Of a stretch of DNA of 32,000 nucleotides, positions 7,825-23,568 are shown one piece after another. Position 1 is the stretch's first letter. Every line of letters starts with the position of its first letter. The notes below the pieces were generated by a model. The model ran no database searches and was not told the DNA's origin. It saw only the letters and a program-made list of their open reading frames with translations. The stretch lies in assembly GCF_043950625.1 (NCBI RefSeq), contig NZ_CP171007.1; one strand, written 5' to 3'. Both the position numbers and the translations under genes were made by a program. Source of the stretch: Alkanindiges sp. WGS2144. Its GTDB lineage: Bacteria > Pseudomonadota > Gammaproteobacteria > Pseudomonadales > Moraxellaceae.

Positions 7825-8214
7825 CTAAATATAAATGATACTGTCACTGTAGCGGGCTACCGTCGTATCATGGGTAACTAGTCGAAGCGGTTCGGCGCGG
7901 GCTTGAGCAACCAGTAATCGATCAAACGGATCCCGATGCAGGTTGGGTAGCTCATCTAGCATAAGTATATGTGTCGTTGTAATGCCCAGAATAAAATAGC
8001 CAGATTGTTGAAAATACGCATGTGCCTGTTTGCCAGAGATAGGCATGTTACTGCGTTGTAGAGCATGCTTAATGCATATCTCCCAAATACTGACATCGCT
8101 CACAAAAATTTTATTATCAGATGAACTAATCAGTGACCGGGCGTGTGGTGTTAACTGTGGCGCGTCAGTAATCGCCCATAGTGCAACATGGGTATCCAGT
8201 AATAACTGCATCAC
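7825..8214 (-). CDS. vapC: PIN-domain toxin (VapC family)
   Basis: 129 aa. N-terminal LLLDTHVALW carries the first PIN acidic residue. SIWEICIK and LPNLHRDPFDRLLVAQA...LVTHD are typical PIN/VapC segments. It overlaps the upstream antitoxin gene by 4 nt. Confidence 0.85.
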   Translation of the reverse strand: MMQLLLDTHVALWAITDAPQLTPHARSLISSSDNKIFVSDVSIWEICIKHALQRSNMPISGKQAHAYFQQSGYFILGITTTHILMLDELPNLHRDPFDRLLVAQARAEPLRLVTHDTTVARYSDSIIYI

Positions 8215-8625: not shown

Positions 8626-8667
8626 ATAGGCGCAACCCTTGAGCAGTTTTATCAGATTAAACATTGA
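8626..8667 (+). pseudogene. displaced relic of a TPM-gene 3' end, containing direct repeat copy A2 (8629-8652)
   Basis: The segment reads I-G-A-T-L-E-Q-F-Y-Q-I-K-H-stop, immediately after an in-frame TAA (8623-8625). Positions 8629-8652 match 7705-7728 at 23 of 24 nt, and the one change (GCG to GCA) is synonymous. Confidence 0.55.
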
Positions 8668-8959
8668 ATCCTATGTGTTTTCCAGTTGGAAGCTCTACAT
8701 CAATACGCAGCTTCCCTCCCATCGCTTCAACATACTTTTTCATGGTTGAAATTTTAAGATCATTGCCACGATTTTCGATTGCAGAAAGGGATGGCTGTTT
8801 TATTCCTAAAGATTCAGCCAGTTCTTTTTGTGAAATTTCTAATTCTTCACGAATCAGGTAAAGCTGGTTTTCAAGTAACAATGCTTCAGCCAGCTCTTGA
8901 ATACGTGCCTGGCTTTCTGGTGAACGAGTAGCAAGTAGTTCTTTTAATGTCTTGGTCAT
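8657..8959 (-). CDS. higA: XRE-family HTH antitoxin (HigA-like)
   Basis: 100 aa with the HTH segment ISQKELAESLGIKQPSLSAIENRGNDLKISTMKKYVEAMG. It lies 4 nt downstream of a Gp49/HigB-like toxin gene, i.e. the toxin-first order typical of higBA. Confidence 0.8.
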   Translation of the reverse strand: MTKTLKELLATRSPESQARIQELAEALLLENQLYLIREELEISQKELAESLGIKQPSLSAIENRGNDLKISTMKKYVEAMGGKLRIDVELPTGKHIGFNV

Positions 8960-8963
8960 GTAA

Positions 8964-9308
8964 CTAATCTCCTAATGATTCAAGATGAAGTGCATATTGC
9001 TGATCAGCAATTGCTAATACCTCGTCATAAAATCGCTTTTTACTGCTTTTATCACCGATACAGAGCACAATAGCTTGACGTAATGGATCAAATGCAAAAA
9101 AAGCCCTCAGGGGTTTACCACGATGCTGAACACGCAGCTCTTTTATGTTGGTAAATTTCGAGTTATAGACAGTATCAACTAACGGTCTACCTAAACTGGG
9201 TTCTTGCTGCTCCAAGACGACCAATGCAGCCAAGACTTTCTCTTGTGTTGATTCATCTTGTTGTATAAGCCATTCGTTAAACAGATTTGTTGTGATTACT
9301 GTCCACAT
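8964..9308 (-). CDS. higB: RelE/ParE-superfamily toxin (HigB / phage Gp49-like)
   Basis: 114 aa. KELRVQHRGKPLRAFFAFDPLRQAIVLCIGDKSSKKRFYDE matches the Gp49-like HigB pattern (R..G...R.ff.....i.ll.g..K). It sits upstream of its HTH antitoxin. Confidence 0.8.
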   Translation of the reverse strand: MWTVITTNLFNEWLIQQDESTQEKVLAALVVLEQQEPSLGRPLVDTVYNSKFTNIKELRVQHRGKPLRAFFAFDPLRQAIVLCIGDKSSKKRFYDEVLAIADQQYALHLESLGD

Positions 9309-10185: not shown

Positions 10186-10443
10186 ATGTCAAACGCTAGC
10201 ATAAATATCCGAACTGATGCAGAGTTAAAAGCAAAAGCACAGCAAACCTTAGCTGATCTCGGTCTTGATATGACCACAGCCATTAATATATTTCTTAATC
10301 AGGTTGTTTATAGAAATGGTATCCCTTTTGAAATTACCAAACCACCAAAGGTTACAACTAAGCTAGGTGGCTGGGAGGATAAAATCAAGCTGGCTGAGGA
10401 TTTTGATGAGCCGTTAGATGATTTTCAAGAGTATATGAGATAA
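10186..10443 (+). CDS. RelB/DinJ-family antitoxin
   Basis: 85 aa. INIRTDAELKAKAQQTLADLGLDMTTAINIFLNQVVYRNGIPFEI is the canonical RelB/DinJ RHH domain. The acidic tail is LAEDFDEPLDDFQEYM. Its stop overlaps the PIN start by 1 nt (TAATG). Confidence 0.85.
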   Translation: MSNASINIRTDAELKAKAQQTLADLGLDMTTAINIFLNQVVYRNGIPFEITKPPKVTTKLGGWEDKIKLAEDFDEPLDDFQEYMR

Positions 10444-10835
10444 TGCGTTCAGCAGCATATTTGTTAGATACACATGCAGTATTATGGATGGCTAGTCGTC
10501 CTGATAAATTGTCCGAGTTGGCTAAACAAGCCATTCTTGATCATCGTTACGATAAGTATGTTAGTGTTGCTTCAGCTTGGGAAGTGGCTATAAAACTGAG
10601 CCTTGGGAAGCTGGAACTCTCAGGTGGCGTGAAGGAGTTTTTCAGAATTTGTAGTAGCAATGGTCTAGCTATACTTAATATTGAAAAAGCTCATCTCCAA
10701 CTAGTCGAGACGCTTCCTTTTATTCATAGAGATCCATTTGATCGATTACTTATTGCCACGGCTACGAGAGAAAACCTTACTTTAATTAGCGCAGATAGTC
10801 ACGTAAACCAATATGCAGTACCATGTTTATGGTAA
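10443..10835 (+). CDS. vapC: PIN-domain toxin (VapC family), paralogous to 7825..8214
   Basis: 130 aa with YLLDTHAVLW, SAWEVAIK and LPFIHRDPFDRLLIATA...LISAD. These motif blocks match those of the PIN toxin at 7825..8214. Confidence 0.85.
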   Translation: MRSAAYLLDTHAVLWMASRPDKLSELAKQAILDHRYDKYVSVASAWEVAIKLSLGKLELSGGVKEFFRICSSNGLAILNIEKAHLQLVETLPFIHRDPFDRLLIATATRENLTLISADSHVNQYAVPCLW

Positions 10836-11475: not shown

Positions 11476-11491
11476 TGGCATAACAAATGCA
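11476..11491 (+). promoter_or_regulatory. sigma-54 (-24/-12) promoter of pilA
   Basis: TGGCAT-aacaa-ATGCA compared with the consensus TGGCAC-N5-TTGCW. It ends 70 nt upstream of the ATG. A 6-bp-arm palindrome gtacaa-aac-ttgtac (11455-11469) lies just upstream. Confidence 0.75.
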
Positions 11492-11561
11492 ATATAAAAA
11501 GCGTGTGCAAAAAGGTTGGCGTTGACAACCGACAATAGAGTTTATTTCTTGGGAGAATTTT

Positions 11562-11975
11562 ATGAACGCACAAAAAGGTTTTACATTAATTGAGTTGATG
11601 ATCGTTGTTGCGATCATTGGTATTTTGGCTGCAATTGCGATTCCTGCTTATCAGAACTATACCAAACGTTCTCATGTTTCTGAAGGCTTGAGCTTAGCTG
11701 GCGGTGCAAAAGCTGCTGTAACAGAAGCTTTTTCTTCTAGAGGAGAATGGCCAACTAATAACGCAGCGGCTGGCTTACCTGCAGCGGCAAGTATCAAAGG
11801 TAACGCAGTTCGCAGTGTCACGGTAGGCGGTAGTACTATTACCATTGTTTATAATACCAAAGTTGCAGCTGGTGCTGACTTAGTTCTACAAGGCGCCTCT
11901 ACTTCAGGTGGCGTAACTTGGACTTGTACTGGTGGCTCTTTGAAATCTGAGTTACGTCCAGCTAACTGTCGTTGA
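11562..11975 (+). CDS. pilA: type IVa major pilin (prepilin, 6-aa leader)
   Basis: MNAQKG|[27 protein letters not shown] is the class III signal with G-1, F+1 and E+5. There is a C-terminal disulfide loop (C122...C136). Strong RBS (gggagaatttt ATG). The protein ends ...PANCR, so it has no C-terminal Ser. Confidence 0.93.
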
Positions 11976-11988
11976 TAGCTATATTTGA

Positions 11989-12017
11989 AAAAGCATCTAT
12001 TGATTAGATGCTTTTTT
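11989..12017 (+). terminator. intrinsic terminator after pilA
   Basis: aaaagcatcta (11989-11999) pairs with tagatgctttt (12005-12015) around a 5-nt loop. The T-run is 12012-12017. Confidence 0.8.
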
Positions 12018-12036
12018 ATTTTATGAGTATAATATA

Positions 12037-13968
12037 TTGAAGAAGGTTATTCCTTATATCTTGCTGTATTTTAGCTTAGCTATTACAGTGCTTATTTATC
12101 AGCAAGGTCTGCATGGGAATTATATTTTTGATGATGTAGCAAATATATTAGAAAATAAAAAACTATCCATTAATTCTCTGGACTGGCTTAGCCTACAGGC
12201 AGCTTGGGATTCGGGTGACGCAGGACCTTTAGGCCGCCCCATCAGTATGTTGTCTTTTGCTTTAAATCATTATTTTTCTGGTTTTGATCCTTATTACTTT
12301 AAACTTACTAATTTAATTATTCATTTATTTAACGGATTATTGGTTTTTTTAATTAGTTCAAAAATACTCCAATGGCTAAGTAAACGCTATCAGAAAGTTA
12401 GCTTGCACAGTGCGCCATGCTTGGCTGTATTAGTAAGCACTGTATGGCTGGTGCATCCACTCAACCTAACTAGCATACTCTATGTTGTACAACGTATGAC
12501 TAGTCTTTCGGCATTATTTGGTTTGCTAGCGGTATTAATTTACTGTACATGGCGCATGCGCACAGTAACCTGGTTAAGTACAGGAGTTGCTACTTTCGGA
12601 CTAGGCTTAGCTTTGTTAGCGTCTATTTACAGCAAAGAATCTGGTATTTTATTTATTTTACTAATTTACTGGATAGAGCTTATTTTATTCCAAGCCAAGA
12701 ATAATAGTTTTCAATCAATTTATATTAAGCAAATTAAGTTAATTTATTTATTATGGGGACTCGTGGTAGTTAGTTTTTTAGTATTTTTATATTTGCTCCC
12801 ACCATACCTGAATCCCGCCAATTTTGCCCGTCGTGAATTTTCTTTAGATGAACGATTACTCACTGAGGCCAGAGTAATCTTCTTTTATTTGAAAATGTTT
12901 TTTTATCCGCTGCTTTCAGATTTAAGCTTATATCATGATGATTTTCCAATCTCAAAATCAATTACACAACCTATCACCACACTATATTCCTTAGTTGGCT
13001 TAGTAGGTATTAGTGCTGTCTGCATCGCTTTAATCAAAAAACATCCAATGTTGCTTTTTGCATGGGGCTGGTATGTAATTAGCCAGTTATTAGAATCAAC
13101 ATTTATTAGTCTGGAACTTATACACGAACATCGCAACTATTTTGGCACTACTGGCTTTGTCATTACTGCTATTTATTACCTAGCGCAAATTAAAAACGAA
13201 AAAATACAGCCTTTTATTTACCTGCTTGGTGGGCTTTATGTGGCGAATTTAGCATTAACGACTTGGCAACGTGCAGAGGTTTGGTCTAATTTGGTAGATC
13301 ATGCTGCTTATGAGGCAACTATGCATCCTAAATCTGACCGCGCTAATTATCAGCTTGCGCGTATTTATATGAACCTAATGCAGCTTCATCCTGAACAACA
13401 GGCCTACTATGCTGATTTAGCAAGAAAAGCATTGATACAATCCAAACACAGCTATATGCCAGCTAATGGTGCATGGTTTGCTGAATTACATTTTAATTCT
13501 TATTTGAATCAACTCCCAGCACAACAAACCATTGATGAGTTGATATGGCGATTAAAACATGAACCCTTTCAAAATAATAATATAAGTTTTTTAAGTGCAT
13601 TCGCTAACTGTCAAATAAGAGGCTCTTGTAAAGTGCCGCATGACCAAGCAGTGCTTATCATTGCAGCAGGTTTGGATAATTTAGGCGTGGGGAATGATCT
13701 CAAGTCGGAGATTTATAAGCTATTAACGCAATACTATATAGGCGTTATTTCAGACTTTGAAAAGGGCGAGGAGTTTATGCAGCATGCAGTGGCTTTGCAT
13801 GAAGATGTAAATGGGCGGCTTTTATTTGCCCAGGTTTATCGTCTGCAGGGTAAGTATGGTCAGGCCAATGCCCAATTACAGCGTGCCAAGCAATTGGATA
13901 AACGCCAAATCTGGTATAAGGAAATAGCAATTGAGCAAAGAAATTTGCGACAAGCAGAAGCCAAATGA
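12037..13968 (+). CDS. polytopic GT-C-like glycosyltransferase with C-terminal TPR domain (TfpW / PMT / TMTC-like); candidate pilin glycosyltransferase
   Basis: 643 aa with a TTG start. The first ~400 aa contain many hydrophobic segments. YIFDD (D32-D33) follows TM1, where GT-C enzymes carry their acidic motif. LYVVQRMTSLSALFGLLAVLIY resembles the DUF1736/TMTC segment. The soluble C-terminal ~220 aa has TPR-like repeats (ANYQLARIYMNLMQ..., LLFAQVYRLQGKYGQANAQLQRAKQLD). The gene lies directly downstream of pilA. Confidence 0.65.
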   Translation: MKKVIPYILLYFSLAITVLIYQQGLHGNYIFDDVANILENKKLSINSLDWLSLQAAWDSGDAGPLGRPISMLSFALNHYFSGFDPYYFKLTNLIIHLFNGLLVFLISSKILQWLSKRYQKVSLHSAPCLAVLVSTVWLVHPLNLTSILYVVQRMTSLSALFGLLAVLIYCTWRMRTVTWLSTGVATFGLGLALLASIYSKESGILFILLIYWIELILFQAKNNSFQSIYIKQIKLIYLLWGLVVVSFLVFLYLLPPYLNPANFARREFSLDERLLTEARVIFFYLKMFFYPLLSDLSLYHDDFPISKSITQPITTLYSLVGLVGISAVCIALIKKHPMLLFAWGWYVISQLLESTFISLELIHEHRNYFGTTGFVITAIYYLAQIKNEKIQPFIYLLGGLYVANLALTTWQRAEVWSNLVDHAAYEATMHPKSDRANYQLARIYMNLMQLHPEQQAYYADLARKALIQSKHSYMPANGAWFAELHFNSYLNQLPAQQTIDELIWRLKHEPFQNNNISFLSAFANCQIRGSCKVPHDQAVLIIAAGLDNLGVGNDLKSEIYKLLTQYYIGVISDFEKGEEFMQHAVALHEDVNGRLLFAQVYRLQGKYGQANAQLQRAKQLDKRQIWYKEIAIEQRNLRQAEAK

Positions 13969-14064
13969 TACAACAGTTATTAAGCTACTACCTGCTACAT
14001 GACTGCTAAACGGACAACAAGCTTATGCTAGAATGTTAAAGCCAGCCGTCTAAAGGATAAAGTA

Positions 14065-14916
14065 TTGAAACTAAGCATTGTGCTGCCTGCCAAAAATGAA
14101 TCGGAAGCAATTGAAACAACTATTCAGGATATTGTTAAGCTAGCAATTGCCCATGAAATCATCGTGGTCAATGATGGTTCAACCGACAGCACTGCCGAAA
14201 TCGCTCGTCAGGCAGGCGCAAAAGTACTCAACCACCCCTACTCTAAGGGGAACGGTGCAGCCATTAAATCAGGGGCACGCGCTGCAACTGGTGATGTGAT
14301 CGTTTTTATGGATGCCGATGGACAACACGATCCACAAGATGTTCCAAGATTATTAGAAAAAATAAATCAAGGCTACGATTTAGTAGTGGGCGCACGGCAA
14401 AAAGGCTCTCAAGCCAGTCTTGGGCGTGGGGTAGCTAATAAGCTATATAACAACCTAGCCACTTATATGACTGAGCATCAAGTAGAAGATTTAACCTCAG
14501 GGTTTAGAGCAGTACGGGCAGATGAGTTTAGAGAGTTTTTGTACCTATTGCCTAATGGGTTTTCCTACCCCACTACGAGTACTATGGCCTTTTTTCGGGC
14601 TGGCTACTCGGTGACTTATGTACCTATTCATGCAGCTAAGCGTATTGGTAAAAGTCATATTAACCCAATAAAAGATGGGGTACGCTTTTTTTTAATCATT
14701 TTTAAAATTGCTACATTGTTTTCACCGCTCAAAATGTTTTTACCTATTGCTGTAGTGCTCTTCTTGATGGCAACAGGGTGGTATGGCTATACCCTGTGGG
14801 ATGCTGGACGGTTTACCAATATGAGTGCGTTACTATATACAGGCAGTGTAATGATTTTTTTAATGGGATTAATTTCAGAGCAGATCACAGCGTTGATGTA
14901 TAAAGATAGTCAATAA
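14065..14916 (+). CDS. GT2 polyprenyl-phosphate glycosyltransferase (GtrB/ArnC/DPM1-like)
   Basis: 283 aa, TTG start preceded by aaggat. LSIVLPAKNE...IIVVNDGSTDSTAEIA...KGNGAAIKSG...VFMDADGQHD carries the DxD motif. Two C-terminal TM helices (FFLIIFKIATLF...PIAVVLFLMATGWYGY; ALLYTGSVMIFLMGLISEQI) complete the architecture of lipid-phosphate sugar transferases. Confidence 0.85.
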   Translation: MKLSIVLPAKNESEAIETTIQDIVKLAIAHEIIVVNDGSTDSTAEIARQAGAKVLNHPYSKGNGAAIKSGARAATGDVIVFMDADGQHDPQDVPRLLEKINQGYDLVVGARQKGSQASLGRGVANKLYNNLATYMTEHQVEDLTSGFRAVRADEFREFLYLLPNGFSYPTTSTMAFFRAGYSVTYVPIHAAKRIGKSHINPIKDGVRFFLIIFKIATLFSPLKMFLPIAVVLFLMATGWYGYTLWDAGRFTNMSALLYTGSVMIFLMGLISEQITALMYKDSQ

Positions 14917-14925
14917 GATATTTTA

Positions 14926-16149
14926 ATGGGTCCTATCACAAAATCCACCTTACGTACCAGTTCAGTATTAAGTTTACGTTTGTTAGTTCAAGCGGGAACA
15001 TTATTACTCGTTGCTCGTATGCTTGGGCCAGACCAATTTGCAGCTTTTGCAGGGATTGCAGCCCTAGCTGTCTTATTAGGTACCTTTTCAACCTTCGGTA
15101 CACATCTAGTTTTACTGGCGGAGGTTGCTAAAGATAAAGTACAACGTCAGCAAGTGCTGCGTTATGCTGTGCCTACCACACTCATTACAGGTAGCCTATT
15201 ATTTCTTACTTATATCGCTGTATGCATATTATTTTTTAAAAATATTGAGTTACCCCTATCGGTCATACTCTGCATTGGTTTTACAGAAACTGTTTTATTC
15301 CCCTTATTTTTAATACCTGCCGTTGAGGAATTAGCATTAGAAAAAACCGCACGCTCGCAACTTTTAATGATTTTTCCTTTAGCCTTGCGCACTCTAGCAG
15401 CAGGTGTAGTGATGCTACTTGCTGTAAGCCAGCCATTGGTCATTTTTGCCTGGCTATACCTCGTTAGTGCTGTGTTAGCGTTACTGTGCATGAAATGGTA
15501 TAAGCCAAACGCCTGGCTTAGCCCTAGTGAGTGGCAACTAGCGAATAAGCAGGAATTAAAATACAATGCAGGTTATGCAACGCTAGCATTGACTGCCGCT
15601 GGTCCGAGCGAGCTTGATAAGATGTTGGCTGCAAAACTATTGCCACTAGAGATAGGTGGGTTATATATTGCAGCGTCAAGAGTTATTGGTGCAGCGACTT
15701 TACCTGTGACAGCATTATTACTTGCTGCAATGCCTCGGTTATTTCGTGGTCATGCCGAAACTCAAGCGCAATCCCAACGCTTGAATCGCTGGATATTAGG
15801 CTCTGTTTTGATTTATGGGATTATTTTAGCTGGGCTGTTATGGCTATTTGCACCATGGGTAGAGTGGCTGTTTGGGCAAAAATACCATGGCATAGCGGAA
15901 ATATTGCAATGGCTATGTTGGGTTATACCTGCATTGGCACTTCGGATTAGTCTAGCGAGTATGTTGATGACTAAGGAGAAGCCTTGGCTACGGGCTGGCA
16001 TTGAAGTTTTTGGAATGTCGGCTCTTGTGATTGGAGCTACTATTCTTTATCCTCTGTTAGGGATAGCGGGAATGGTATTAGCATTGGCCATTTCAGAGTG
16101 GGGGATGGCTATTGTTGGTTGTTTTTTTGCTTTGTATAGATCTACTTAA
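14926..16149 (+). CDS. Wzx/MOP-superfamily flippase-like membrane protein
   Basis: 407 aa and almost entirely hydrophobic. The N-terminus LSLRLLVQAGTLLLVARMLGPDQFAAFAGIAAL matches the Polysacc_synt/Wzx pattern (l..l..i.lar.Lgp..fG.f). There is no large periplasmic loop of the kind seen in Wzy or ligases. Confidence 0.7.
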   Translation: MGPITKSTLRTSSVLSLRLLVQAGTLLLVARMLGPDQFAAFAGIAALAVLLGTFSTFGTHLVLLAEVAKDKVQRQQVLRYAVPTTLITGSLLFLTYIAVCILFFKNIELPLSVILCIGFTETVLFPLFLIPAVEELALEKTARSQLLMIFPLALRTLAAGVVMLLAVSQPLVIFAWLYLVSAVLALLCMKWYKPNAWLSPSEWQLANKQELKYNAGYATLALTAAGPSELDKMLAAKLLPLEIGGLYIAASRVIGAATLPVTALLLAAMPRLFRGHAETQAQSQRLNRWILGSVLIYGIILAGLLWLFAPWVEWLFGQKYHGIAEILQWLCWVIPALALRISLASMLMTKEKPWLRAGIEVFGMSALVIGATILYPLLGIAGMVLALAISEWGMAIVGCFFALYRST

Positions 16150-16164
16150 GGATATATATTCATA

Positions 16165-17007
16165 ATGGGCATAGATGTTCATGCATTGCAGCTACTTCAA
16201 TATAATAAACAATATAATAAGGGGTTAGGCAAAACGCTTACACTGGGCAGATTAGCTATACTATTGGGTTCCAGATTAGCAAAGAAATGGGCAGGAACAG
16301 ACCAAGGCGCGTGGTGCGAGGATTTATTGATTAAAAATTTTAATGCAGAGCAAGTAGATTCTATCGATAATTCAGGCTACGAGGACGCAAGTATTATATA
16401 TGACTACAATTGCCCAGTACCTAATGTACTTAAGAATCAATATGATACTGTATTAGATTTTGGCTGCTCAGAACATATATTTGACGTTGCACAAGCCTTT
16501 AAAAATACGATTAGTGTATGCAAAGTAGGTGGGATTATATTGCATATACTGCCTACTGATGGTTTTTGTGGACACGGATTTTATCAGTTTACCCCTGAAT
16601 TTTTCTTTTCTCTTTACTCCCAGGAGAATGGCTTTAAAAATACGGAAGTTTTTCTTTCTGATTTATACAATCCAAAAAAATGGTATAAAGTAAACAGACC
16701 AAATAATGGACAACGTATTAATATTAGAACAACCAATGAAACATATGTAATCGTTAGAACTGAAAAGAACAGTGATAAAGAAATATTTTTACAGCAATCT
16801 GACTATACTCATTTGTGGAATGAAGGAAATAGTAAAACTGCCAAGCCCTATAAGATAGGTAAAATTACTCGAATTCGAGAAGCTCTAAGTTTCTCATCAT
16901 TTATGGTAAAACTATTTATGTTACTAGTTGCACGCATGCCTTCAAATGGAACAAAAAAACTCAGTCAACATAAATCATTAAGCCTATTTAAGCCACCTTC
17001 GATATGA
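16165..17007 (+). CDS. class I methyltransferase-fold protein with an atypical motif I (function uncertain)
   Basis: 280 aa with an aagga RBS. YDTVLDFGCSEHIFDVAQAFKNTISVCKVGGIILHILP matches the fD.V.....lEHv.d.......i...LkpGG.l motif of Methyltransf_11/23-type enzymes. VDSIDNS fits motif II. The Gly-rich SAM loop is not evident (GKTLTLGRLAI). Confidence 0.45.
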   Translation: MGIDVHALQLLQYNKQYNKGLGKTLTLGRLAILLGSRLAKKWAGTDQGAWCEDLLIKNFNAEQVDSIDNSGYEDASIIYDYNCPVPNVLKNQYDTVLDFGCSEHIFDVAQAFKNTISVCKVGGIILHILPTDGFCGHGFYQFTPEFFFSLYSQENGFKNTEVFLSDLYNPKKWYKVNRPNNGQRINIRTTNETYVIVRTEKNSDKEIFLQQSDYTHLWNEGNSKTAKPYKIGKITRIREALSFSSFMVKLFMLLVARMPSNGTKKLSQHKSLSLFKPPSI

Positions 17008-17036
17008 TATCGCTTTAAAGCCTAATGGGTGTTAGG

Positions 17037-18137
17037 TTAAGTACATTTGTTAGCTGTTAAAATCACTTCCCAAGCGTCAGCAGCCTTTCCTACAGTAAAA
17101 GCTTTAGCACGCTGTAATAATTCTTGCGAAGATACAAGGCTTTTGTCTATCAATCCCTGAGAGATACCATTTGCTAAAGCTAGAGGATCTTCATTCCCAA
17201 CCAAAATACCCCAGCGACCATCTTCTAAAATTTCCCTAGGACCATGCGGGCAATTTGTTGCAATAATTTGGCAACCGCTTGCCAATGCTTCAACCAATAC
17301 TAAACCAAACCCCTCAAAACGAGAAGATAATATAAATAAATCAGCCTGCCTCAGAACGTCTAACGGCGTATCTGTGTGGCCCCGTAAGGAGATACGCTGC
17401 TGCAAGTCATATTTATCAATCAAATTTTGCAGAGCTTGCTTATCTTCACCATTGCCCCAGATATCTAGGTGCCAAGGTTGAGGAACTTTAGTCATTGCTT
17501 CTATAAGGATATCAAAACCTTTTTGGCGAGTTAATCGTCCAAGTGCAACAATGTTAGGTATTCTATTATTTGATATCTCTTTCGGCGCTTTGGGAATAAG
17601 CTGTGTATCATCTAAAACAGGGTTATAAATGGTAATAACTTTATTTTGAACTACTTTAAATTTATCTAGTATATCCTGTCGCACACCATTAGAAACAGCC
17701 ACAACGGCATCACATTTTTTATATACAATAGATGCAAATATTTTATCTAGCTGAAATCGCAATCGCCCTATTATATTTGGCTCGGCAGTAATTAAATCAT
17801 GTGTAGCATGTACACCGTGTGCCCAAAAAACTTTTTTACCTGAACGGTTTATGGCTAGGTGAGTTAAAAAGCCAATATCAGCAAATGCAGTGATAATATG
17901 GGTAGGCCGCCATATTTGTATTAGTTTGGAAAGATTAGGAACGAACTGATGCAGACCACCAGCAGCGATTTCATATATAGGACATAAGTCTTGAGCTTCT
18001 TGTAGAAACTCACCATAGGCTCGACGTAGAGCAAAAGCACATTCATGACCACGTCGCTGCAATTCGGCGACCAAACGCAGCGTCACACGCTCAACGCCCC
18101 CAGTAACCATACGCGGTAGAACAAATAGGATTTTCAT
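17037..18137 (-). CDS. GT4-family (GT-B) glycosyltransferase
   Basis: 366 aa. MKILFVLPRMVTGGVERV is a GT4 N-terminal motif. LGRLTRQKGFDILIEA and SRFEGFGLVLVEALASGCQIIATNCPHGPREIL carry the EX7E region. The start overlaps the upstream gene by 4 nt. Confidence 0.85.
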   Translation of the reverse strand: MKILFVLPRMVTGGVERVTLRLVAELQRRGHECAFALRRAYGEFLQEAQDLCPIYEIAAGGLHQFVPNLSKLIQIWRPTHIITAFADIGFLTHLAINRSGKKVFWAHGVHATHDLITAEPNIIGRLRFQLDKIFASIVYKKCDAVVAVSNGVRQDILDKFKVVQNKVITIYNPVLDDTQLIPKAPKEISNNRIPNIVALGRLTRQKGFDILIEAMTKVPQPWHLDIWGNGEDKQALQNLIDKYDLQQRISLRGHTDTPLDVLRQADLFILSSRFEGFGLVLVEALASGCQIIATNCPHGPREILEDGRWGILVGNEDPLALANGISQGLIDKSLVSSQELLQRAKAFTVGKAADAWEVILTANKCT

Positions 18138-19234
18138 AAGTCAACTTGAGAAATAAGTAGTTTATTTATCTTTCCTTTTACTTGAAGAGTAATCTCATTC
18201 CAATACATATAGCTCGGTTTATTAACTAGAAAACAATCTTTTAGCTGCTTAACTATAGCAGACGCTAGACTTTCAGGATTATTTGGTTCTGCTAAATAAG
18301 GCTCTAACTCTGCAGCTTGGTTTGGAAAGTTTGCAAACAAATTTGGTGAGCGTGTCGCAACGATAGGACGTTGCATCATCATGGCTTCTCCTATTTTATT
18401 AGGCGCAGCTGCATCAAGAAAAGCAGAGCGACGATGTGGAATAGCGAGTGCATCACAAGCGGCTAGTGCATAAGGCACCTCTCTAAAAGGTACATTACCT
18501 AGGTAGCGTATACTCGGTTGGCTCAAATCTAAGTTTGGATCAGATCGTCCACCTAGTAGTAGCATTATATCATGACCTTGCTGGCGTAATATTTTTACAG
18601 CATCTATTAAATCTTGCACACCTCTATCGGGCTCCATACTACCAAAATAGCCCACAAATGTTTGTGCTAGAGGTAGCTGTAGCTTAGTCCGTGCTTCTGT
18701 TTTGTCTATAGTCGTAAAATGCTTGGCATCTATGCCATTACTCAAGATTGTATCGTATTGCGGTTGCCCCAGTTTCTGTAATAATGTATGACTAGCAAAA
18801 AAACGCATATCTGCTTTTTTTAATAAGAAGCCAAATAGGTCAAATCCTAGTGGCTTCATATATCCAGAGAATTCATCATATTTATCGTATACATCAAATA
18901 TAAATTTTGCTTTATGCGATATTGCTAATATATAACCCAGTAGACCAATATAACAATCTCCACTTGCTATAATTACATCATATTTTTCTTGCTCAATGCT
19001 TTCTTGAATATATTGGTAGAACACTGCTCCTGTTTTTACAGGTGTAGAGGTGATTTTTAAGTGTTTGTCAGTGGCTTTTATTTTTTTTGATGAATGATAG
19101 TCAATAAGCCAGAGCTTAATTTTTATATCTTGCTCTTTGGATAAATGTAAGGGTAACTGATAAATACGACCGAATTTTTCAGTTAGCGCATCACGGTTAG
19201 TATTGAAGCGTTTGCCTATGAAAAGGATATTCAT
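18134..19234 (-). CDS. GT-B fold glycosyltransferase (GT4-like, divergent)
   Basis: 366 aa. MNILFIGKRF..., FVGYFGSMEPDRGVQDLIDAV and APNKIGEAMMMQRPIVATRSPN have a GT1/GT4-like layout. The classic EX7E is less clear than in its neighbours. Confidence 0.65.
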   Translation of the reverse strand: MNILFIGKRFNTNRDALTEKFGRIYQLPLHLSKEQDIKIKLWLIDYHSSKKIKATDKHLKITSTPVKTGAVFYQYIQESIEQEKYDVIIASGDCYIGLLGYILAISHKAKFIFDVYDKYDEFSGYMKPLGFDLFGFLLKKADMRFFASHTLLQKLGQPQYDTILSNGIDAKHFTTIDKTEARTKLQLPLAQTFVGYFGSMEPDRGVQDLIDAVKILRQQGHDIMLLLGGRSDPNLDLSQPSIRYLGNVPFREVPYALAACDALAIPHRRSAFLDAAAPNKIGEAMMMQRPIVATRSPNLFANFPNQAAELEPYLAEPNNPESLASAIVKQLKDCFLVNKPSYMYWNEITLQVKGKINKLLISQVDL

Positions 19235-19248
19235 ATAATTGGAATTCT

Positions 19249-20427
19249 CTATAAATTTTCTACTACATAATGTAAGGATCTCCCAAAATTAAACCATTCA
19301 AATTGCTTAGCAAAATTTTGAATATCATCCTTATTTTGAATATTATCCTTTGACAATGGACTTTCTAACAATAAAATAATCTGTTTACTTAGTTTTATAT
19401 AATTATTTCTTTCTACTAAATAACCAGAAACTCCATCTTTTACTGCGTCCACAACACCTCCTGTTGCAAAGCCAACAGTAGGTAAGCCATGGGCAGCGGC
19501 TTCAATGGCGACCATACCAAAACCTTCGGGATCATCAGGAATATGGCGTACAGGAAACACATGTATGTCTGATACTTCATACACAATAGCTAACTGTTCC
19601 TTATCAGTTATTACACCAAGAAATACTATATGACTTTCAATCTTATGATTTCTAGCCACCTTTAATATCTCTTCCTGAGTTTGCATACCTGCAGCTAAAG
19701 AATTTCTAGGTGATTCACCAACTACAACCAAAATAGTATTAGGCTCGTGTTTTACTATTTCAGGCAAAGAATATTTAACAAACTCTTTTAAACCCTTACG
19801 TGTGGTTAGGCGCCCTACAGAGAGAAGGATTTTTTTATTTTTAAGATTATACGTTTGTCTGAATGCCTGAACCTTTTCCAATGGCTGAAAAGCCGTCGGT
19901 AGCTCAACTCCTGGATAAACAATACTAATAATTTCTTCCCGTATTCCAGCATTACTGGCTAACACTTTGGTAGGCCTACTATTAACAATAATATGATCTA
20001 ATTTTTTAAAAAAAGGAATCCAAAAAATTTGGTAGCTTTTTTTGGGGACAGTAATGTCAAAGCCATGTAGATAAGCTATTGACTGTGCTCCGCAAAGTTT
20101 GCTAGTAAACCATGCCAACGGTGCAGTTAAGCCGCTACCAGCCAGAATTACATCTGGTCTGTCTATTAAAGCAAACCAAATAGACTTGATAAAAGCAACA
20201 AACATAAATAAAGGCAAGGGTTTTAGGGGTGCTTCACTTAGTTTTATGTTTTTTGGCTTTAACTTCTTTGACCCTCTAGGGCCTATCACCTTTACCTCAG
20301 TATATTTACTGAGTTCATCAGCCATATGCCAATTGAGGCGCTCCATACCCCCTACAAGAGGCGGCAAATTGCGAGTAATTATTAAAATCTTTCTAGAAGA
20401 GCTTGCTTTATTTGAAAGGGTTGTCAT
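19249..20427 (-). CDS. GT4-family (GT-B) glycosyltransferase
   Basis: 392 aa. ILIITRNLPPLVGGMERL, VGRLTTRKGLKEFV and PEGFGMVAIEAAAHGLPTVGFATGGVVDAVKDGVSGYLV carry the EX7E region. The start overlaps the end of the acyltransferase gene by 20 nt. Confidence 0.85.
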   Translation of the reverse strand: MTTLSNKASSSRKILIITRNLPPLVGGMERLNWHMADELSKYTEVKVIGPRGSKKLKPKNIKLSEAPLKPLPLFMFVAFIKSIWFALIDRPDVILAGSGLTAPLAWFTSKLCGAQSIAYLHGFDITVPKKSYQIFWIPFFKKLDHIIVNSRPTKVLASNAGIREEIISIVYPGVELPTAFQPLEKVQAFRQTYNLKNKKILLSVGRLTTRKGLKEFVKYSLPEIVKHEPNTILVVVGESPRNSLAAGMQTQEEILKVARNHKIESHIVFLGVITDKEQLAIVYEVSDIHVFPVRHIPDDPEGFGMVAIEAAAHGLPTVGFATGGVVDAVKDGVSGYLVERNNYIKLSKQIILLLESPLSKDNIQNKDDIQNFAKQFEWFNFGRSLHYVVENL

Positions 20428-22342
20428 ATCTTTTTAGGTACTCAATTGCTATTTCCTTAGAGCCAGCATAAGTAAGATGCTGACTATCCCGATAGAGTGG
20501 GATTCCATTTAGCGAGGAATAACATTTTACGCTATCACAAATAATACGGTTAAGATCTAGTACAATAAGCTCAGGATAGCGTTGCTGTACTTTATTTAAT
20601 ATATCTAACCATTCAGCAAAGTCTGCATCATACTTCACTTTATCAAATGTACAATCATCTTTGACAAAATCTTTTCTCAAATTGCAGTTAATGTCTACAT
20701 CGACCAAGATCGGATTATCATTAATCAGGACAGGGGCGGCGCCCGTTTGAGCAATAGCCTTAATAGCTTTCTCTAAACCTAGGATAAAGTTTTGCTTAGA
20801 GTTTTTTTCTTCTAAAGAACCATCTTCGGCTAAAGAGTATATATTTCTTTCCCAATTATGAGGAAAAAACCCCCCCATAATTACAAACCTAAATTTATTA
20901 TTTTTGATCAATGTTTGATTGGATGAATTAATTTGATAAAAATTTTGATTGACCTGAATTTCTCCTGTTTGCATGTTCCGAACTGATCTATTCATACCAG
21001 GCAGGTAAGCCGTAGAGGAAAAAGTAACTTCATAACCTTTGAGCTTCGCGTTCTTTGCCAAATAATCAACAAAACCTCTCTGGGCATTAGCATGACTGTC
21101 GCCTACTAATAGAAAGTCTATTTTTTCTTTGTTAGTTTCTCCTAAAAAGCAGTCCGAATGTGGATGATTGCTTTGGTCTATACATTTAATCTGGTTAAAG
21201 TCATCTATAACTTGGCTAGGTAATGCTGTTGCTTGTTTGGCATTTTGTAGAATAGAAAAATTGTTCACACCAAAAGCTAATACAATTATTAAGCTAGGGA
21301 GAGCAAATAAAGTTTGAATAGGTTTATGCCGATATAAGAAATAAAGCTTAATTTTTTTCTCTATTAATTCATAAGTTAGGCCTGAAAAAGCAATTGTAAG
21401 AACTATAACAGCAATAGAAGTGAGGCTGGTAAGAGGTACTGATAACAGAGATAAATAGACAATAATAGGCCAATGCCATAAATACATGGGATAGGAAATC
21501 TTTCCTATGTATTGTATTGGCTGAAAAAATTTACCTGCAAAACCATGGGCGCCATAAATAAATAGTGCAGCACCTAGACAGGGTGCAAGAGCAGTGTATG
21601 AGGGAAATAGGGAGTTTCGCGTAATTAATAGACTGGATACAATTATTAAAGTAAGTGAAGCTATCGCCATAAGAGTTGAGATTTGGGGACTAAACTTCTT
21701 TGGGGGCAATAAAGTAATAAGAGCACCTATGCAAAACTCAAAAATGCGCGAGGGCAATAAATAGTAAGCTCCTATAGGATCTTTTAAGGCGGAAATATAA
21801 GAAACAACAAGTGACAGTAGAGTAATAAAGATTAGAACGATTAGCCTCGATTTACCTTTAATATTAAGTAGAAACAAAAAAAACACTGGCCATACTAAAT
21901 AAAATTGCTCTTCTAAGCTTAATGACCATATATGAAGTAGAGGAGTTGACCTTGCAGAAATACTAAAATAGTCATTGAGTAAAGTATAATAATAAATATT
22001 TGAGGTAAGGGTAACAGAAGCAACAGCAGTTTTAAGGAATTCCTTCCATTCACCTTCAGTTAGAATAGAGTAAAATACGATAGAGCTGCTAAAGATAACT
22101 GTGAAAAAAGCTGGAGCTAAGCGAATAATGCGGCGTTGATAAAAATCTTTAAATGAAAAGCAAGTGGTTGTTTGCCTCTCTTGAGAAATAGCTCTGGTGA
22201 TGAGGAATCCAGAAATGACTAAAAAAACGTCAACTCCAATGAATCCACCTTTAAAATAGGAGAATTCAAGATGATGAAAAATAACTAATAGTACAGCTAA
22301 AGCTCTAAGGATATCGATGTGGGGTAAATACGTGGTTTTCAT
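20408..22342 (-). CDS. acyltransferase-3 (AT3) membrane domain fused to a periplasmic SGNH domain (OafA/OatA-like O-acetyltransferase)
   Basis: 644 aa. N-terminal YLPHIDILRALAVLLVIFHHL...GFIGVDVFLVISGFLIT is the AT3 signature, followed by ~10 TM segments. The C-terminal soluble domain has SGNH block I (LLVGDSHANA) and a distal DSQHLT. Confidence 0.85.
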   Translation of the reverse strand: MKTTYLPHIDILRALAVLLVIFHHLEFSYFKGGFIGVDVFLVISGFLITRAISQERQTTTCFSFKDFYQRRIIRLAPAFFTVIFSSSIVFYSILTEGEWKEFLKTAVASVTLTSNIYYYTLLNDYFSISARSTPLLHIWSLSLEEQFYLVWPVFFLFLLNIKGKSRLIVLIFITLLSLVVSYISALKDPIGAYYLLPSRIFEFCIGALITLLPPKKFSPQISTLMAIASLTLIIVSSLLITRNSLFPSYTALAPCLGAALFIYGAHGFAGKFFQPIQYIGKISYPMYLWHWPIIVYLSLLSVPLTSLTSIAVIVLTIAFSGLTYELIEKKIKLYFLYRHKPIQTLFALPSLIIVLAFGVNNFSILQNAKQATALPSQVIDDFNQIKCIDQSNHPHSDCFLGETNKEKIDFLLVGDSHANAQRGFVDYLAKNAKLKGYEVTFSSTAYLPGMNRSVRNMQTGEIQVNQNFYQINSSNQTLIKNNKFRFVIMGGFFPHNWERNIYSLAEDGSLEEKNSKQNFILGLEKAIKAIAQTGAAPVLINDNPILVDVDINCNLRKDFVKDDCTFDKVKYDADFAEWLDILNKVQQRYPELIVLDLNRIICDSVKCYSSLNGIPLYRDSQHLTYAGSKEIAIEYLKRYDNPFK

Positions 22343-22469
22343 TTAAATATATTGTTTTTACTATGGCTAAGCTGTTTTGATGAATACAAATAATAATACT
22401 TAAGTGACATTTTTTACTACTAGAATTAATTTTCTGAATTTAAGCAGTTGATTTAGATGGTATTTTTTT

Positions 22470-22485
22470 TGGCATAAAAATTGCT
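22470..22485 (+). promoter_or_regulatory. sigma-54 (-24/-12) promoter of the second pilin gene
   Basis: TGGCAT-aaaaa-TTGCT compared with the consensus TGGCAC-N5-TTGCW. It ends 34 nt upstream of the ATG and is preceded by a T8 tract. RBS aaaagga at 22505-22511. Confidence 0.75.
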
Positions 22486-22519
22486 GATTATGCTAAGAAA
22501 TAAGAAAAGGATATAAATC

Positions 22520-22969
22520 ATGCCTAGTCAGCACGGCTTTACACTCATAGAGCTTATGATTGTGGTGGCAATTATTGGGCTTCTAGCTGCCATAGCCATT
22601 CCTGCCTATCAGAATTATACAGCACGGAGTCAGGTTGCGGAAGCATTGAACATGGCTAATGCTTTTAAAGGGGAAGTAGTTAGCTATTATGGTGAGTCTG
22701 GTACTTGTCCAACGATTACAGGTTTAGGACTGCCAGCCTCTGGTGATTTAAATGGCCGTTATATAGATTCTTTGTCTACTTCTACCCCACAAGGGGCAGT
22801 TTGTGCCATTACTTTTAACTTTAAATCAGCAGGAACAAATAGTGGGTTGAAAAATAAGCATCTGACCTTGGCTATGCTGGATATTAGCATTCAAGGTTCT
22901 GCACAGTGGCTATGTTCTTCTGAAGATATACAGCAAATTTATCTGCCCAGTACTTGTCGGGGTATCTAA
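22520..22969 (+). CDS. second type IVa pilin paralogue (four-cysteine, 149 aa)
   Basis: MPSQHG|[27 protein letters not shown] gives the same 6-aa leader length and processing site as pilA. The globular domain is unrelated in sequence. Cysteines sit at precursor positions 63, 95, 132 and 146. The protein ends ...STCRGI. Confidence 0.9.
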
Positions 22970-23163: not shown

Positions 23164-23568
23164 TTAAGTGTCAAACCAGTTGAGGCATTGCAAACCTGTA
23201 ACTCGTCTAAATTCCCGTATATTACGCGTCACGAGCTGTCCATGTACAGACAGTGCTGTTGCTGCAATTAATACATCATGGGCGCCAATGGGCGTACCCA
23301 ACTTTTCCAGATCGACCCTGACCTTCGCTGCTATTTGAGCGACCTGCTCATCAAAGGGAATCACCCGAACATATTGTAAAAAGTGCGCTAGGGCTTGCAA
23401 ACGTGGCTTGGCTTGCGAGGGCGCTAAGCGTCGTAAGCCGTATTGCAATTCATAAACCACGATGGCAGGTACAGCAACTTGCTCAGGTGTGGTCGCTTCC
23501 AAAGCAGCTACAACACACGGTTCGCCTCGAAAATAATAACTAATCGTATTGGTGTCTAAGACAAGCAT
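23164..23568 (-). CDS. vapC: PIN-domain toxin (VapC family)
   Basis: 134 aa. MLVLDTNTISYYFRG is the PIN N-terminus, with IVVYELQYG and AHDVLIAATALSVHGQLVTRNIREF. It overlaps the upstream antitoxin stop by 1 nt. Confidence 0.85.
   Translation of the reverse strand: MLVLDTNTISYYFRGEPCVVAALEATTPEQVAVPAIVVYELQYGLRRLAPSQAKPRLQALAHFLQYVRVIPFDEQVAQIAAKVRVDLEKLGTPIGAHDVLIAATALSVHGQLVTRNIREFRRVTGLQCLNWFDT

Follow-up and report, generated by a model that had tools for sequence, protein, structure and literature searches.

Pilin glycosylation shields type IV pili against antibodies and phages that target the pilus and, to our knowledge, only two enzyme types have so far been tied to it, the Wzy_C proteins (TfpO/PglL/TfpM) and the D-arabinofuranose transferase TfpW. 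TfpW, which serves the group IV pilins of Pseudomonas (para)aeruginosa (PA7, Pa5196), is a pilin arabinosyltransferase of the GT-C class of glycosyltransferases (GTs), with homologues adjoining pilA reported in several genera, including Acinetobacter venetianus; a Rho-independent terminator 3′ of pilA, attenuating expression of the accessory gene, is the published design of such pilin cassettes (PMC11841053). Described here is a locus from a 32,000-nt stretch of Alkanindiges sp. WGS2144 (Moraxellaceae; RefSeq assembly GCF_043950625.1, contig NZ_CP171007.1), referred to throughout as the window, in which a 643-aa polytopic protein, 100% identical to a hypothetical protein of this organism, is encoded between a type IVa pilin gene and the gene of a putative lipid-phosphate-sugar synthase. 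The region from 11476 to 22969 is interpreted, with a probability of roughly 0.6, as a pilin-dedicated, TfpW-type O-glycosylation island, which was inserted at the pilA locus and most likely serves to cover the pilus protein in sugars. The elements at its 5′ end are:

11476..11491, plus strand: sigma-54-type -24/-12 promoter-like motif TGGCATAACAAATGCA, 5′ of pilin gene 1, fitting the pattern TGGCAY-N6-TGCW
11562..11975, plus strand: pilin gene 1, type IVa, pilA-like, 137 aa, ending ...RPANCR (Pfam Pilin 1e-21, N_methyl 6e-11)
11986..12018, plus strand: intrinsic-terminator-like hairpin and T-run in the gap between the pilin and GT-C genes (14-bp stem, 5-nt loop)
12037..13968, plus strand: 643-aa polytopic protein of predicted GT-C fold with a C-terminal, predicted periplasmic tetratricopeptide repeat (TPR) domain, TfpW-like, proposed pilin glycosyltransferase, TTG start
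14065..14916, plus strand: putative GT2 polyprenyl-phosphate glycosyltransferase of GtrB/ArnC/DPM1/AglJ type, 283 aa (PF00535 2e-33)
14926..16149, plus strand: MOP-superfamily (Wzx-like) membrane protein, 407 aa, about 11 transmembrane helices, candidate flippase (Pfam Polysacc_synt)

Conserved gene order gives strong support to the link with the pilin. One genome per species was scanned and 80 further loci were kept, from beta- and gammaproteobacteria; a same-strand pilin gene lies at most 700 bp upstream of the GT-C gene in 59 of the 73 loci with enough sequence, or in 67 of 73 when a pilin gene anywhere upstream is counted, and a GT2 orthologue is found in 60 of 71 loci, directly downstream in 45 of them. 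Identity to the proteins of the window is 54-64% for the GT2 orthologues and 31-35% for the GT-C proteins. The genes flanking the pilin/GT-C pair differ among loci (pilSR, pilB, gltBD), and the pilins can be regarded as the regulated major pilin, since pilS/pilR or pilB lies further upstream in many genera. As the pilin/GT-C/GT2 arrangement recurs across 80 loci, in differing genera and chromosomal contexts, it is far beyond chance; the neighbourhood survey proposed in an earlier, first-pass annotation of the stretch has thus come out in favour of the pairing. The locus belongs to a family that is very large and widespread, and it is not peculiar to the Alkanindiges genome: a profile search of 50%-identity cluster representatives returned 6,433 at E ≤1e-30 and 47,447 at E ≤1e-3, the latter including TPR-only matches, and members are named ‘hypothetical’, ‘TPR protein’, ‘pilus assembly protein PilF’ or ‘protein O-mannosyl-transferase’ in their sources. 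No paper describing a pilin-linked GT-C/GT2 family was found in the literature searched. Two contigs of the survey, labelled ‘MAG: Klebsiella pneumoniae’ and ‘uncultured Enterobacteriaceae’ (L056, L079), hold pilSR/pilA/GT-C cassettes typical of other gammaproteobacteria, and their labels are possibly binning or labelling errors.

Pilin 1 is 62-73% identical to the pilins preceding the GT-C gene in Acinetobacter loci. The gap of 61 nt between it and the 643-aa open reading frame (ORF), with the hairpin inside, is as first annotated, and on folding the pilA/GT-C gaps form stable hairpins in nearly all of 65 related loci. A perfect TATAAT hexamer is situated at 12028-12033, between the terminator and the TTG start of the GT-C gene (12037), and a six-codon ORF (ATG 12023 to TGA) overlaps that start. 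The pattern TGGCAY-N6-TGCW has two matches in the 32-kb window (chance expectation 0.78 per window), 71 nt and 35 nt 5′ of the two pilin starts; the position of the window's only two sigma-54 matches ahead of the pilins suggests promoters of RpoN/PilR type for both.

The pilin-adjacent TfpO/PilO, PglL and TfpM enzymes (Wzy_C; Pseudomonas, Neisseria, Acinetobacter, Moraxella) are likewise periplasmic pilin glycosyltransferases that use a lipid-linked donor, but TfpO draws on O-antigen or capsule units that are linked to undecaprenyl diphosphate and made elsewhere, and its target is a C-terminal Ser, whereas the pilins of the window end in Arg (pilin 1, ...NCR) and Ile (pilin 2, ...CRGI), both lacking that Ser as the first-pass annotation had stated. 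The identity of the 643-aa protein as a TfpO-type enzyme was ruled out by the lack of a Wzy_C domain match in Pfam, and the difference then drawn from the TfpO/PglL route stands. A C-terminal Ser occurs in 5 of 58 GT-C-linked pilins; comparison of Ser/Thr content and C-termini between GT-C-linked and other pilins gave no discriminating signal (23% versus 23%), and conserved Ser/Thr in the alpha-beta loop of aligned close pilins (YSS.G..P.T.N) are a lead only. Next to the GT-C cassette, A. bohemicus and A. towneri each have a TfpO-like gene accompanied by its own pilin.

Sequence and profile searches of the 643-aa protein against Pfam, NCBIfam and PDB returned TPR matches only, leaving the membrane domain unrecognised. 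DUF1736 (PF08409), PMT and PMT_2 gave no match to the protein at E ≤1, do not figure among the 25 families that 51 diverse relatives matched most often, and, like ArnT and STT3 among the curated GT-C families, have no sequence-profile match to the membrane domain. The segment formerly described as DUF1736/TMTC-like, LYVVQRMTSLSALFGLLAVLIY, is indeed present, at residues 148-169, and forms the most conserved block of the family, but the DUF1736 label is not borne out by any hidden Markov model match. Modelling with AlphaFold2 gave a full-length structure of good internal confidence scores (predicted local distance difference test 85.5, predicted template modelling score 0.83), for which Foldseek matches are dominated by TPR proteins, STT3A appearing at rank 27. 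Residues 1-423 were therefore modelled separately, freeing the membrane domain from TPR matches, and the high-probability Foldseek matches then comprise PglB, PIGU, AglB, ArnT, Pmt1/Pmt2, Stt3, AftB, Pmt4, DPY19 and ALG6 (probability 0.7-1.0, and about 1.0 for PglB, AglB, ArnT, Pmt1/2, Stt3 and AftB; PglB E 3.5e-3, TM-score 0.46), each one a GT-C enzyme or a protein of GT-C fold, as against ≤0.35 for non-GT-C matches (transporters). Fold, topology and motif position point to a GT-C fold for the membrane domain; the GT-C membership proposed at the outset is supported by the structure search, with PglB, ArnT and Pmt1/2 among the matches, and not by any sequence-profile match.

AlphaFold2 helices combined with the Lys/Arg content of the loops (positive-inside rule) predict 11 transmembrane helices, with the N-terminus in and the C-terminus out. 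The first transmembrane helix spans residues 5-25, and the Asp-Asp pair that had been noted after it (D32-D33, nt 12130-12135; DDV at 32-34) is found seven residues beyond, within predicted periplasmic loop 1 (residues 26-90), the periplasmic orientation that the first-pass annotation had expected. Predicted periplasmic loop 4 (residues 258-312) carries Y284-x6-P291 and Y299-H-D-D302, predicted loop 5 (residues 358-367) carries H365-R-N-Y368, and the C-terminus, correctly seen as TPR-like, is an all-helical TPR solenoid (residues 419-642), predicted to be periplasmic. Invariant in 51 homologues (29-45% identity) are D32 and D33 together with at least 20 further residues, including R67, K89, H96, Q152-R153-M154, K200-E201, R273, Y284, P291, Y299-H-D-D302 and H365-R366-N367-Y368.

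In its description TfpW matches this protein in several respects: a gene directly 3′ of pilA and behind a terminator, about 11 transmembrane helices with the N-terminus in, a DDX motif in periplasmic loop 1, a large periplasmic C-terminal TPR domain, and a lipid-phosphate-sugar donor made in the cytoplasm, as is proposed for the window. By analogy with that published description the 643-aa protein may be called TfpW-like in behaviour and at most a possible TfpW orthologue; no protein named TfpW, from A. venetianus, Azotobacter, Pseudomonas or otherwise, and no A. venetianus or T. turnerae protein is among the family relatives retrieved. A second large protein search, seeded with the Exilibacterium homologue, likewise brought up none from Teredinibacter turnerae, and a tblastn search of plasmids gave no hit. 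TfpW and its homologues share a conserved proline-rich motif, YX6PFX7P, in periplasmic loop 4, of which the window's loop 4 keeps only Y284-x6-P291, followed by L292 and H300, and a regular-expression search found the motif in none of 106 family ORFs in 88 loci and none of 408 full-length homologues. The donor routes differ as well, that of TfpW running through DPPR synthase, DprE1 and DprE2 to decaprenyl- or undecaprenyl-phosphate-D-arabinofuranose and that of the window through a GtrB/ArnC-type GT2; genes for D-arabinofuranose (DPPR synthase, DprE1, DprE2, GtrA-like) are absent among the window ORFs and the GT2-less islands checked. A search for islands of D-arabinofuranose type among the 80 loci yielded candidate ORFs that proved to be methyltransferases, LPG_synthase_TM proteins, a GT4 and a sulfotransferase. 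Unlike TfpW's locus, moreover, the island encodes a dedicated MOP/ABC flippase candidate and several cytoplasmic GT4s within itself; the earlier statement that the TfpW donor is made by genes located elsewhere is true of P. aeruginosa, whereas it fails for P. indica and Kingella denitrificans.

Eukaryotic TMTC1-4/PMT with DPM1, and actinobacterial Pmt/Ppm1, rely on a GT-C protein that O-glycosylates protein Ser/Thr from a polyprenyl-phosphate monosaccharide, itself the product of a DPM1-type GT2. TMTC shares C-terminal TPRs with the 643-aa protein, and Pmt1/2 and Pmt4 are structural matches to it; it differs from TMTC (GT105) and PMT in having neither a PMT, PMT_2 or DUF1736 match nor a MIR domain, and the system of the window, unlike theirs, would be dedicated to one substrate encoded next door.

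The genes 3′ of the 643-aa ORF follow at gaps of 96, 9 and 15 nt, exactly as first reported. The first of them, the GT2, carries a DAD motif and two C-terminal transmembrane helices, in keeping with its original description as a DxD protein of GtrB/ArnC/DPM1 architecture; its closest solved structures in PDB are ArnC (1.6e-19), Pyrococcus DPMS (7e-18) and GtrB sll0501 (3e-16), the alignment with GtrB running full length (residues 2-275, both transmembrane helices) and those with ArnC and DPMS over the catalytic domain. Its top NCBIfam matches are AglJ (3e-41), Dol-P-hexose transferase, PpgS, ArnC and PgfS, none of which reaches its equivalog cut-off. These matches to ArnC, DPMS, GtrB and the NCBIfam models mark the GT2 as a probable polyprenyl-phosphate sugar synthase by family, and the adjoining, co-conserved gene of this type supports a polyprenyl-phosphate-linked sugar as the putative donor of the GT-C protein.

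The 407-aa protein, labelled Wzx/MOP-like from the start, keeps that label: it scores 28.7 bits against Pfam Polysacc_synt (cut-off 28.2), and HHalign of its orthologue profile with clear MOP proteins of other islands gives a probability of 97.4% (E 1.5e-11, 401 columns); a PDB sequence search returned nothing useful. It is a candidate flippase of the lipid-linked donor. Across the family, the flippase is an interchangeable accessory and not a defining part, being a MOP protein, a PglK-like ABC exporter, an LPG_synthase_TM (MprF-like) protein or none; a candidate is present here, as had been claimed, but a fixed component of the system it is not. Among 25 diverse polytopic ORFs other than the GT-C protein, 8 are MOP, 5 LPG_synthase_TM, 3 PMT_2 and 1 ABC-2. 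ORFs of the LPG_synthase_TM (MprF flippase-like) kind occur in islands without a MOP/ABC candidate (for example L062:8970-9896, L016:3349-4404 and L007:16961-17938), and by family assignment could be a third flippase type. A second, PMT_2-type GT-C protein is encoded downstream of the TPR-bearing one at L021:4509-6041 and in two other ORFs; HHalign of the family profile with the ORF of L021 gave no signal (probability 0.1).

The first-pass annotation was essentially right in what it observed and, in outline, in how it interpreted the locus; it erred on the size of the unit, the role of the flippase and the DUF1736 label. The module that it closed at 16149 continues with glycan genes up to 22342, and the island, from 11476 to 22969, is closed by the second pilin gene:

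16165..17007, plus strand: 280-aa ORF, weakly methyltransferase-like (Methyltransf_23 E 0.009, sub-threshold)
17037..18137, minus strand: GT4 glycosyltransferase a, 366 aa (Glycos_transf_1 1e-31, Glyco_transf_4)
18134..19234, minus strand: GT4 glycosyltransferase b, 366 aa (Glyco_trans_1_4 6e-18)
19249..20427, minus strand: GT4 glycosyltransferase c, 392 aa (Glycos_transf_1 2e-30)
20408..22342, minus strand: AT3 plus SGNH acyltransferase of OafA/OafB type, 644 aa (Acyl_transf_3 4e-35, SGNH 3e-31)
22470..22485, plus strand: second sigma-54-type promoter-like motif TGGCATAAAAATTGCT, 5′ of pilin gene 2, fitting the pattern TGGCAY-N6-TGCW
22520..22969, plus strand: pilin gene 2, type IVa, 149 aa, ending ...PSTCRGI (Pfam Pilin 5e-18)

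The 280-aa ORF, earlier called methyltransferase-like, has sub-threshold matches only (E 0.0017 for its A. bohemicus orthologue), no match in a PDB sequence search, and is confined to the three closest loci. Convergent with the genes before it, an operon at 17037-22342 of three GT4 genes and the AT3-SGNH gene fills the remainder of the low-GC island to pilin 2. The top NCBIfam matches of GT4a are PglJ (1e-39) and PglH, proteins that extend lipid-linked oligosaccharides, both below cut-off; GT4b has 46% identical orthologues in the betaproteobacterial islands L022 and L030, and GT4c has 37-59% identical orthologues in many loci and is the GT4 most often kept beside the GT2 elsewhere. The AT3-SGNH gene shares 20 nt with GT4c, an overlap that places the two in one operon, and has orthologues in the islands of A. 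bohemicus and A. towneri. The SGNH domain of OafA-type proteins acts in the periplasm, and the probable role of this one is periplasmic O-acylation of the glycan.

Upstream of the island the window contains, in order, gltB, gltD, a metal hydrolase, LemA and two TPM-domain genes, then three toxin-antitoxin modules ahead of pilin 1; after pilin 2 come a PIN toxin, ferritin, Uma2, RidA, SpoT and RNase R. G+C content is 33-44% across about 8-23.5 kb and 45-52% in the flanks. The toxin-antitoxin modules (7825-8214, 8657-9308, 10186-10835 and 23164-23568) lie on both flanks of the island, within the low-GC stretch, and include two PIN toxins, an HTH and Gp49 pair, and a VapBC-like pair. Pilin 2 has no accessory gene 3′ of it; one A. 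johnsonii island (L003) is likewise closed by a second pilin, and the A. bohemicus counterpart of pilin 2 (58% identical) adjoins a TfpO-like Wzy_C gene.

Pilin, GT-C and GT2 genes always follow one another in this order in A. bohemicus, A. johnsonii, A. qingfengensis, A. towneri and A. tianfuensis, and most of these islands occupy one chromosomal site, with TPM (phosphatase) genes on one flank and ferritin/RidA/SpoT on the other, between which there are only pilin genes and glycan genes. After the GT2, some islands have a MOP protein, others a PglK-like ABC exporter of 570 aa and others neither of the two; next comes a varying set of GT4, GT2, S-adenosylmethionine-dependent methyltransferase, nucleotidyltransferase, dTDP-sugar, Stealth and acyltransferase genes. 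Two island types of A. johnsonii have an identical GT-C protein (P0088) and GT2s that are 78-80% identical, L003 combining them with MOP and GT2/methyltransferase/GT4 genes and L004/L005 with an ABC exporter and nucleotidyltransferase/HAD/WavE/GT4 genes. The commonest betaproteobacterial order is pilA, GT-C, GT2, GT4, epimerase, GT2; across the survey, 41 of 68 loci have a GT4 of the two main GT4 clusters no more than 7.5 kb downstream, and a census of 131 de-duplicated downstream ORFs counted 16 GT2s, 12 methyltransferases, 11 GT4s and 8 MOP proteins, along with nucleotide-sugar enzymes. A sulfotransferase (L045:10095-11021) and a Stealth sugar-phosphate transferase (L006:14558-15577) hint, by family, at sulfated or phosphodiester-linked pilin glycans in some islands.

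Gene order, folds, family assignments, predicted topology and the co-conservation of pilin, GT-C and GT2 form the observed frame of the island; what we infer within it is which lipid and which sugar make up the donor, that pilin is the acceptor, in what order the steps run, and whether an oligosaccharide or one sugar is transferred. Transcription of pilA would start from the sigma-54-type promoter, and read-through of the terminator would give low-level expression of the downstream genes. The GT2, anchored by its two C-terminal transmembrane helices, would transfer sugar from a nucleotide sugar to undecaprenyl phosphate at the cytoplasmic face, and the cytoplasmic GT4s would probably extend this lipid-monophosphate-linked sugar before the MOP protein flipped the product to the periplasm. 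There the 643-aa GT-C protein would move the glycan onto pilin Ser/Thr ahead of pilus assembly, with D32-D33 serving catalysis and the periplasmic TPR solenoid acting as pilin holder, and the AT3-SGNH protein would O-acylate the glycan. By analogy with TfpW and TfpO, the coat is likely to mask the pilus from pilus-specific phages and antibodies.

Involvement of the GT4s is favoured on four grounds: the islands bounded by pilin genes have no other content; the flippase slot is taken by exporters of oligosaccharide type (Wzx-like, PglK-like); conservation of the GT2 far exceeds that of its surroundings, as would be expected of a constant first sugar and a variable outer glycan; and an identical GT-C protein coexists with differing sets of glycan genes. 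Taken further, and held only tentatively, the triad may represent a major bacterial route of protein O-glycosylation, in which an oligosaccharide is built on undecaprenyl monophosphate and transferred en bloc to pilin by a GT-C enzyme of relaxed specificity. An AglJ/GtrB-like GT2 would start the chain, cytoplasmic GT4s and GT2s with methyltransferases would extend it, and interchangeable MOP, ABC or MprF-like transporters would flip it. Such a route would follow the logic of euryarchaeal AglB and would be unlike both the undecaprenyl-diphosphate/Wzy_C route (TfpO, PglL) and one-sugar three-component systems. AglJ starts a dolichyl-monophosphate-linked oligosaccharide, and MOP-type flippases occur in archaeal pathways. 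Archaeal AglJ/AglB (Haloferax) and bacterial PglB are close on two counts, AglJ being the best NCBIfam match of the GT2 and PglB and AglB the best structural matches of the GT-C protein; they differ in that AglB and PglB N-glycosylate Asn in sequons through an STT3 WWDYG domain, and the matches in the window are all below the family cut-offs.

Several points weigh against this interpretation of the island. The AlphaFold2 model was built from 37 sequences only, all at least 52% identical to the query; the Foldseek E-values are modest (3.5e-3 to 0.1, with TM-scores of 0.3-0.46), and the predicted GT-C assignment comes with no sequence-profile link to PMT, PMT_2, ArnT or DUF1736. In 6 of 73 loci there is no upstream pilin gene, and another polytopic ORF, the candidate flippase, is present within 7.5 kb in only 35 of 87. 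No initiating phosphoglycosyltransferase was seen in the gene-listed loci or among the 25 commonest downstream families, so that the GT4s could serve another pathway; we know of no characterised bacterial precedent for GT4 extension of an undecaprenyl-monophosphate-linked sugar. Glycosylation of this family's pilins is, finally, a prediction from genes and protein models.

The serious rival, though a rather unlikely one in our estimation, is a strict three-component system, in which the GT2 makes an undecaprenyl-phosphate monosaccharide, the MOP protein flips it, and the GT-C protein adds single sugars to pilin Ser/Thr or, as TfpW does, polymerises them in the periplasm, the GT4/acyltransferase operon belonging to another pathway or to pilin 2. 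In known systems of this kind (GtrA/GtrB/Gtr*, ArnC/ArnEF/ArnT, CsbB/GtcA/YfhO, and Citrobacter ORF15/14/12, which founded GT136) a synthase, a flippase and a GT-C protein occur together, as they do here, and one with a MATE/MOP-type flippase is documented (PMC11127046). Their acceptor is a polysaccharide, teichoic acid or lipid A, whereas that of the window would be a protein, the pilin, and they differ further from the window in its TPR domain on the GT-C protein, its extra cytoplasmic glycosyltransferases and a flippase that is not conserved in the family. Streptococcal GtrB/Pgf (PgfS, PgfM1/M2) comes nearer as to acceptor, a GT2 undecaprenyl-phosphate-sugar synthase serving a GT-C protein that O-glycosylates extracytoplasmic Ser/Thr-rich regions (PMC11092751), but it is Gram-positive, its GT-C families have no TPR, and it has no pilin link. 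That the solved GT2s of the type (GtrB, ArnC, DPMS) all make monosaccharide donors, that the TfpW model assembles its glycan in the periplasm from such donors, that only the pilin/GT-C/GT2 triad is conserved throughout, and that 27 of 68 loci are without a main-cluster GT4 within 7.5 kb all speak for one sugar at a time.

Stepwise periplasmic addition would also fit the two or three tandem GT-C paralogues of about 15 loci, which suggest several specificities or successive periplasmic steps. Such tandem GT-C/TPR paralogues follow a single pilin in L013, L015, L030, L041, L044, L050, L055 and L056, and likewise in L073, L075, L078, L080, L086 and L088, the last with three copies. Against addition of single sugars stand the GT4, second GT2, methyltransferase and nucleotide-sugar genes within the pilin-bounded island of every Acinetobacter locus, their recurrence beside the triad in unrelated chromosomal contexts, the PglK-like ABC exporters and Wzx-like proteins of the flippase slot, which are typical of oligosaccharide carriers, and the lack in the family of TfpW's proline-rich ‘polymerase’ motif. 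The complete three-component pilin pathway originally proposed is supported as regards the pilin link, the GT-C protein and the GT2, but its simple one-sugar picture is probably too small, because related islands always carry variable cytoplasmic glycosyltransferase and methyltransferase genes.

It is improbable that the GT-C/TPR protein and the GT2 modify a target other than pilin (lipooligosaccharide, capsule, peptidoglycan-linked polymers or other periplasmic proteins), with the pilA site being merely a recombination hot spot. Most bacterial three-component systems do decorate polysaccharides or lipid A, 6 of 73 loci are without an upstream pilin, some genomes have additional copies at a distance from pilin genes (L042 and L084 among them), and the island is low in G+C, strain-variable and flanked by toxin-antitoxin modules; these features are outweighed by same-strand adjacency to pilA in 59 of 73 loci of beta- and gammaproteobacteria with differing flanks, by the short gap, whose hairpin is a conserved attenuator like that of the pilA-tfpO and pilA-tfpW cassettes, and by a TPR domain, which TMTC, OGT and TfpW also have and which fits a protein as acceptor.

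Far less credible still is a non-catalytic accessory of pilus assembly or a pilin chaperone (TfpY/TfpX/TfpZ- or PilF-like) on a GT-C-like scaffold, for which the names ‘pilus assembly protein PilF’ and ‘TPR protein’ given to relatives in some sources, and the non-enzymatic accessories encoded by other pilin cassettes, might be invoked: the acidic pair and the charged or polar residues of the periplasmic loops are invariant in the family, the partnership with a lipid-phosphate-sugar synthase is tight, and PIGU, the sole non-catalytic GT-C-fold protein among the Foldseek matches, is a single match among many catalytic ones. A chance neighbour of pilA is ruled out by conservation (59 of 73 loci).

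Genes of this family sit between pilA and a lipid-phosphate-sugar synthase gene in many beta- and gammaproteobacteria, including environmental and clinical Acinetobacter species. If the interpretation of a pilin-dedicated glycosylation island is true, they would constitute a third, probably common, route of pilin glycosylation, which would account for pilins without the C-terminal Ser used by TfpO and would supply glycoengineering with a new protein O-glycosyltransferase together with a portable donor pathway. The A. johnsonii strains with an identical GT-C protein and differing glycan genes offer a natural comparison for the transfer of lipid-monophosphate-linked oligosaccharides by a bacterial GT-C enzyme. 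Should en bloc transfer prove true, the islands would be strain-variable ‘pilus serotype’ cassettes shaped by phage pressure.

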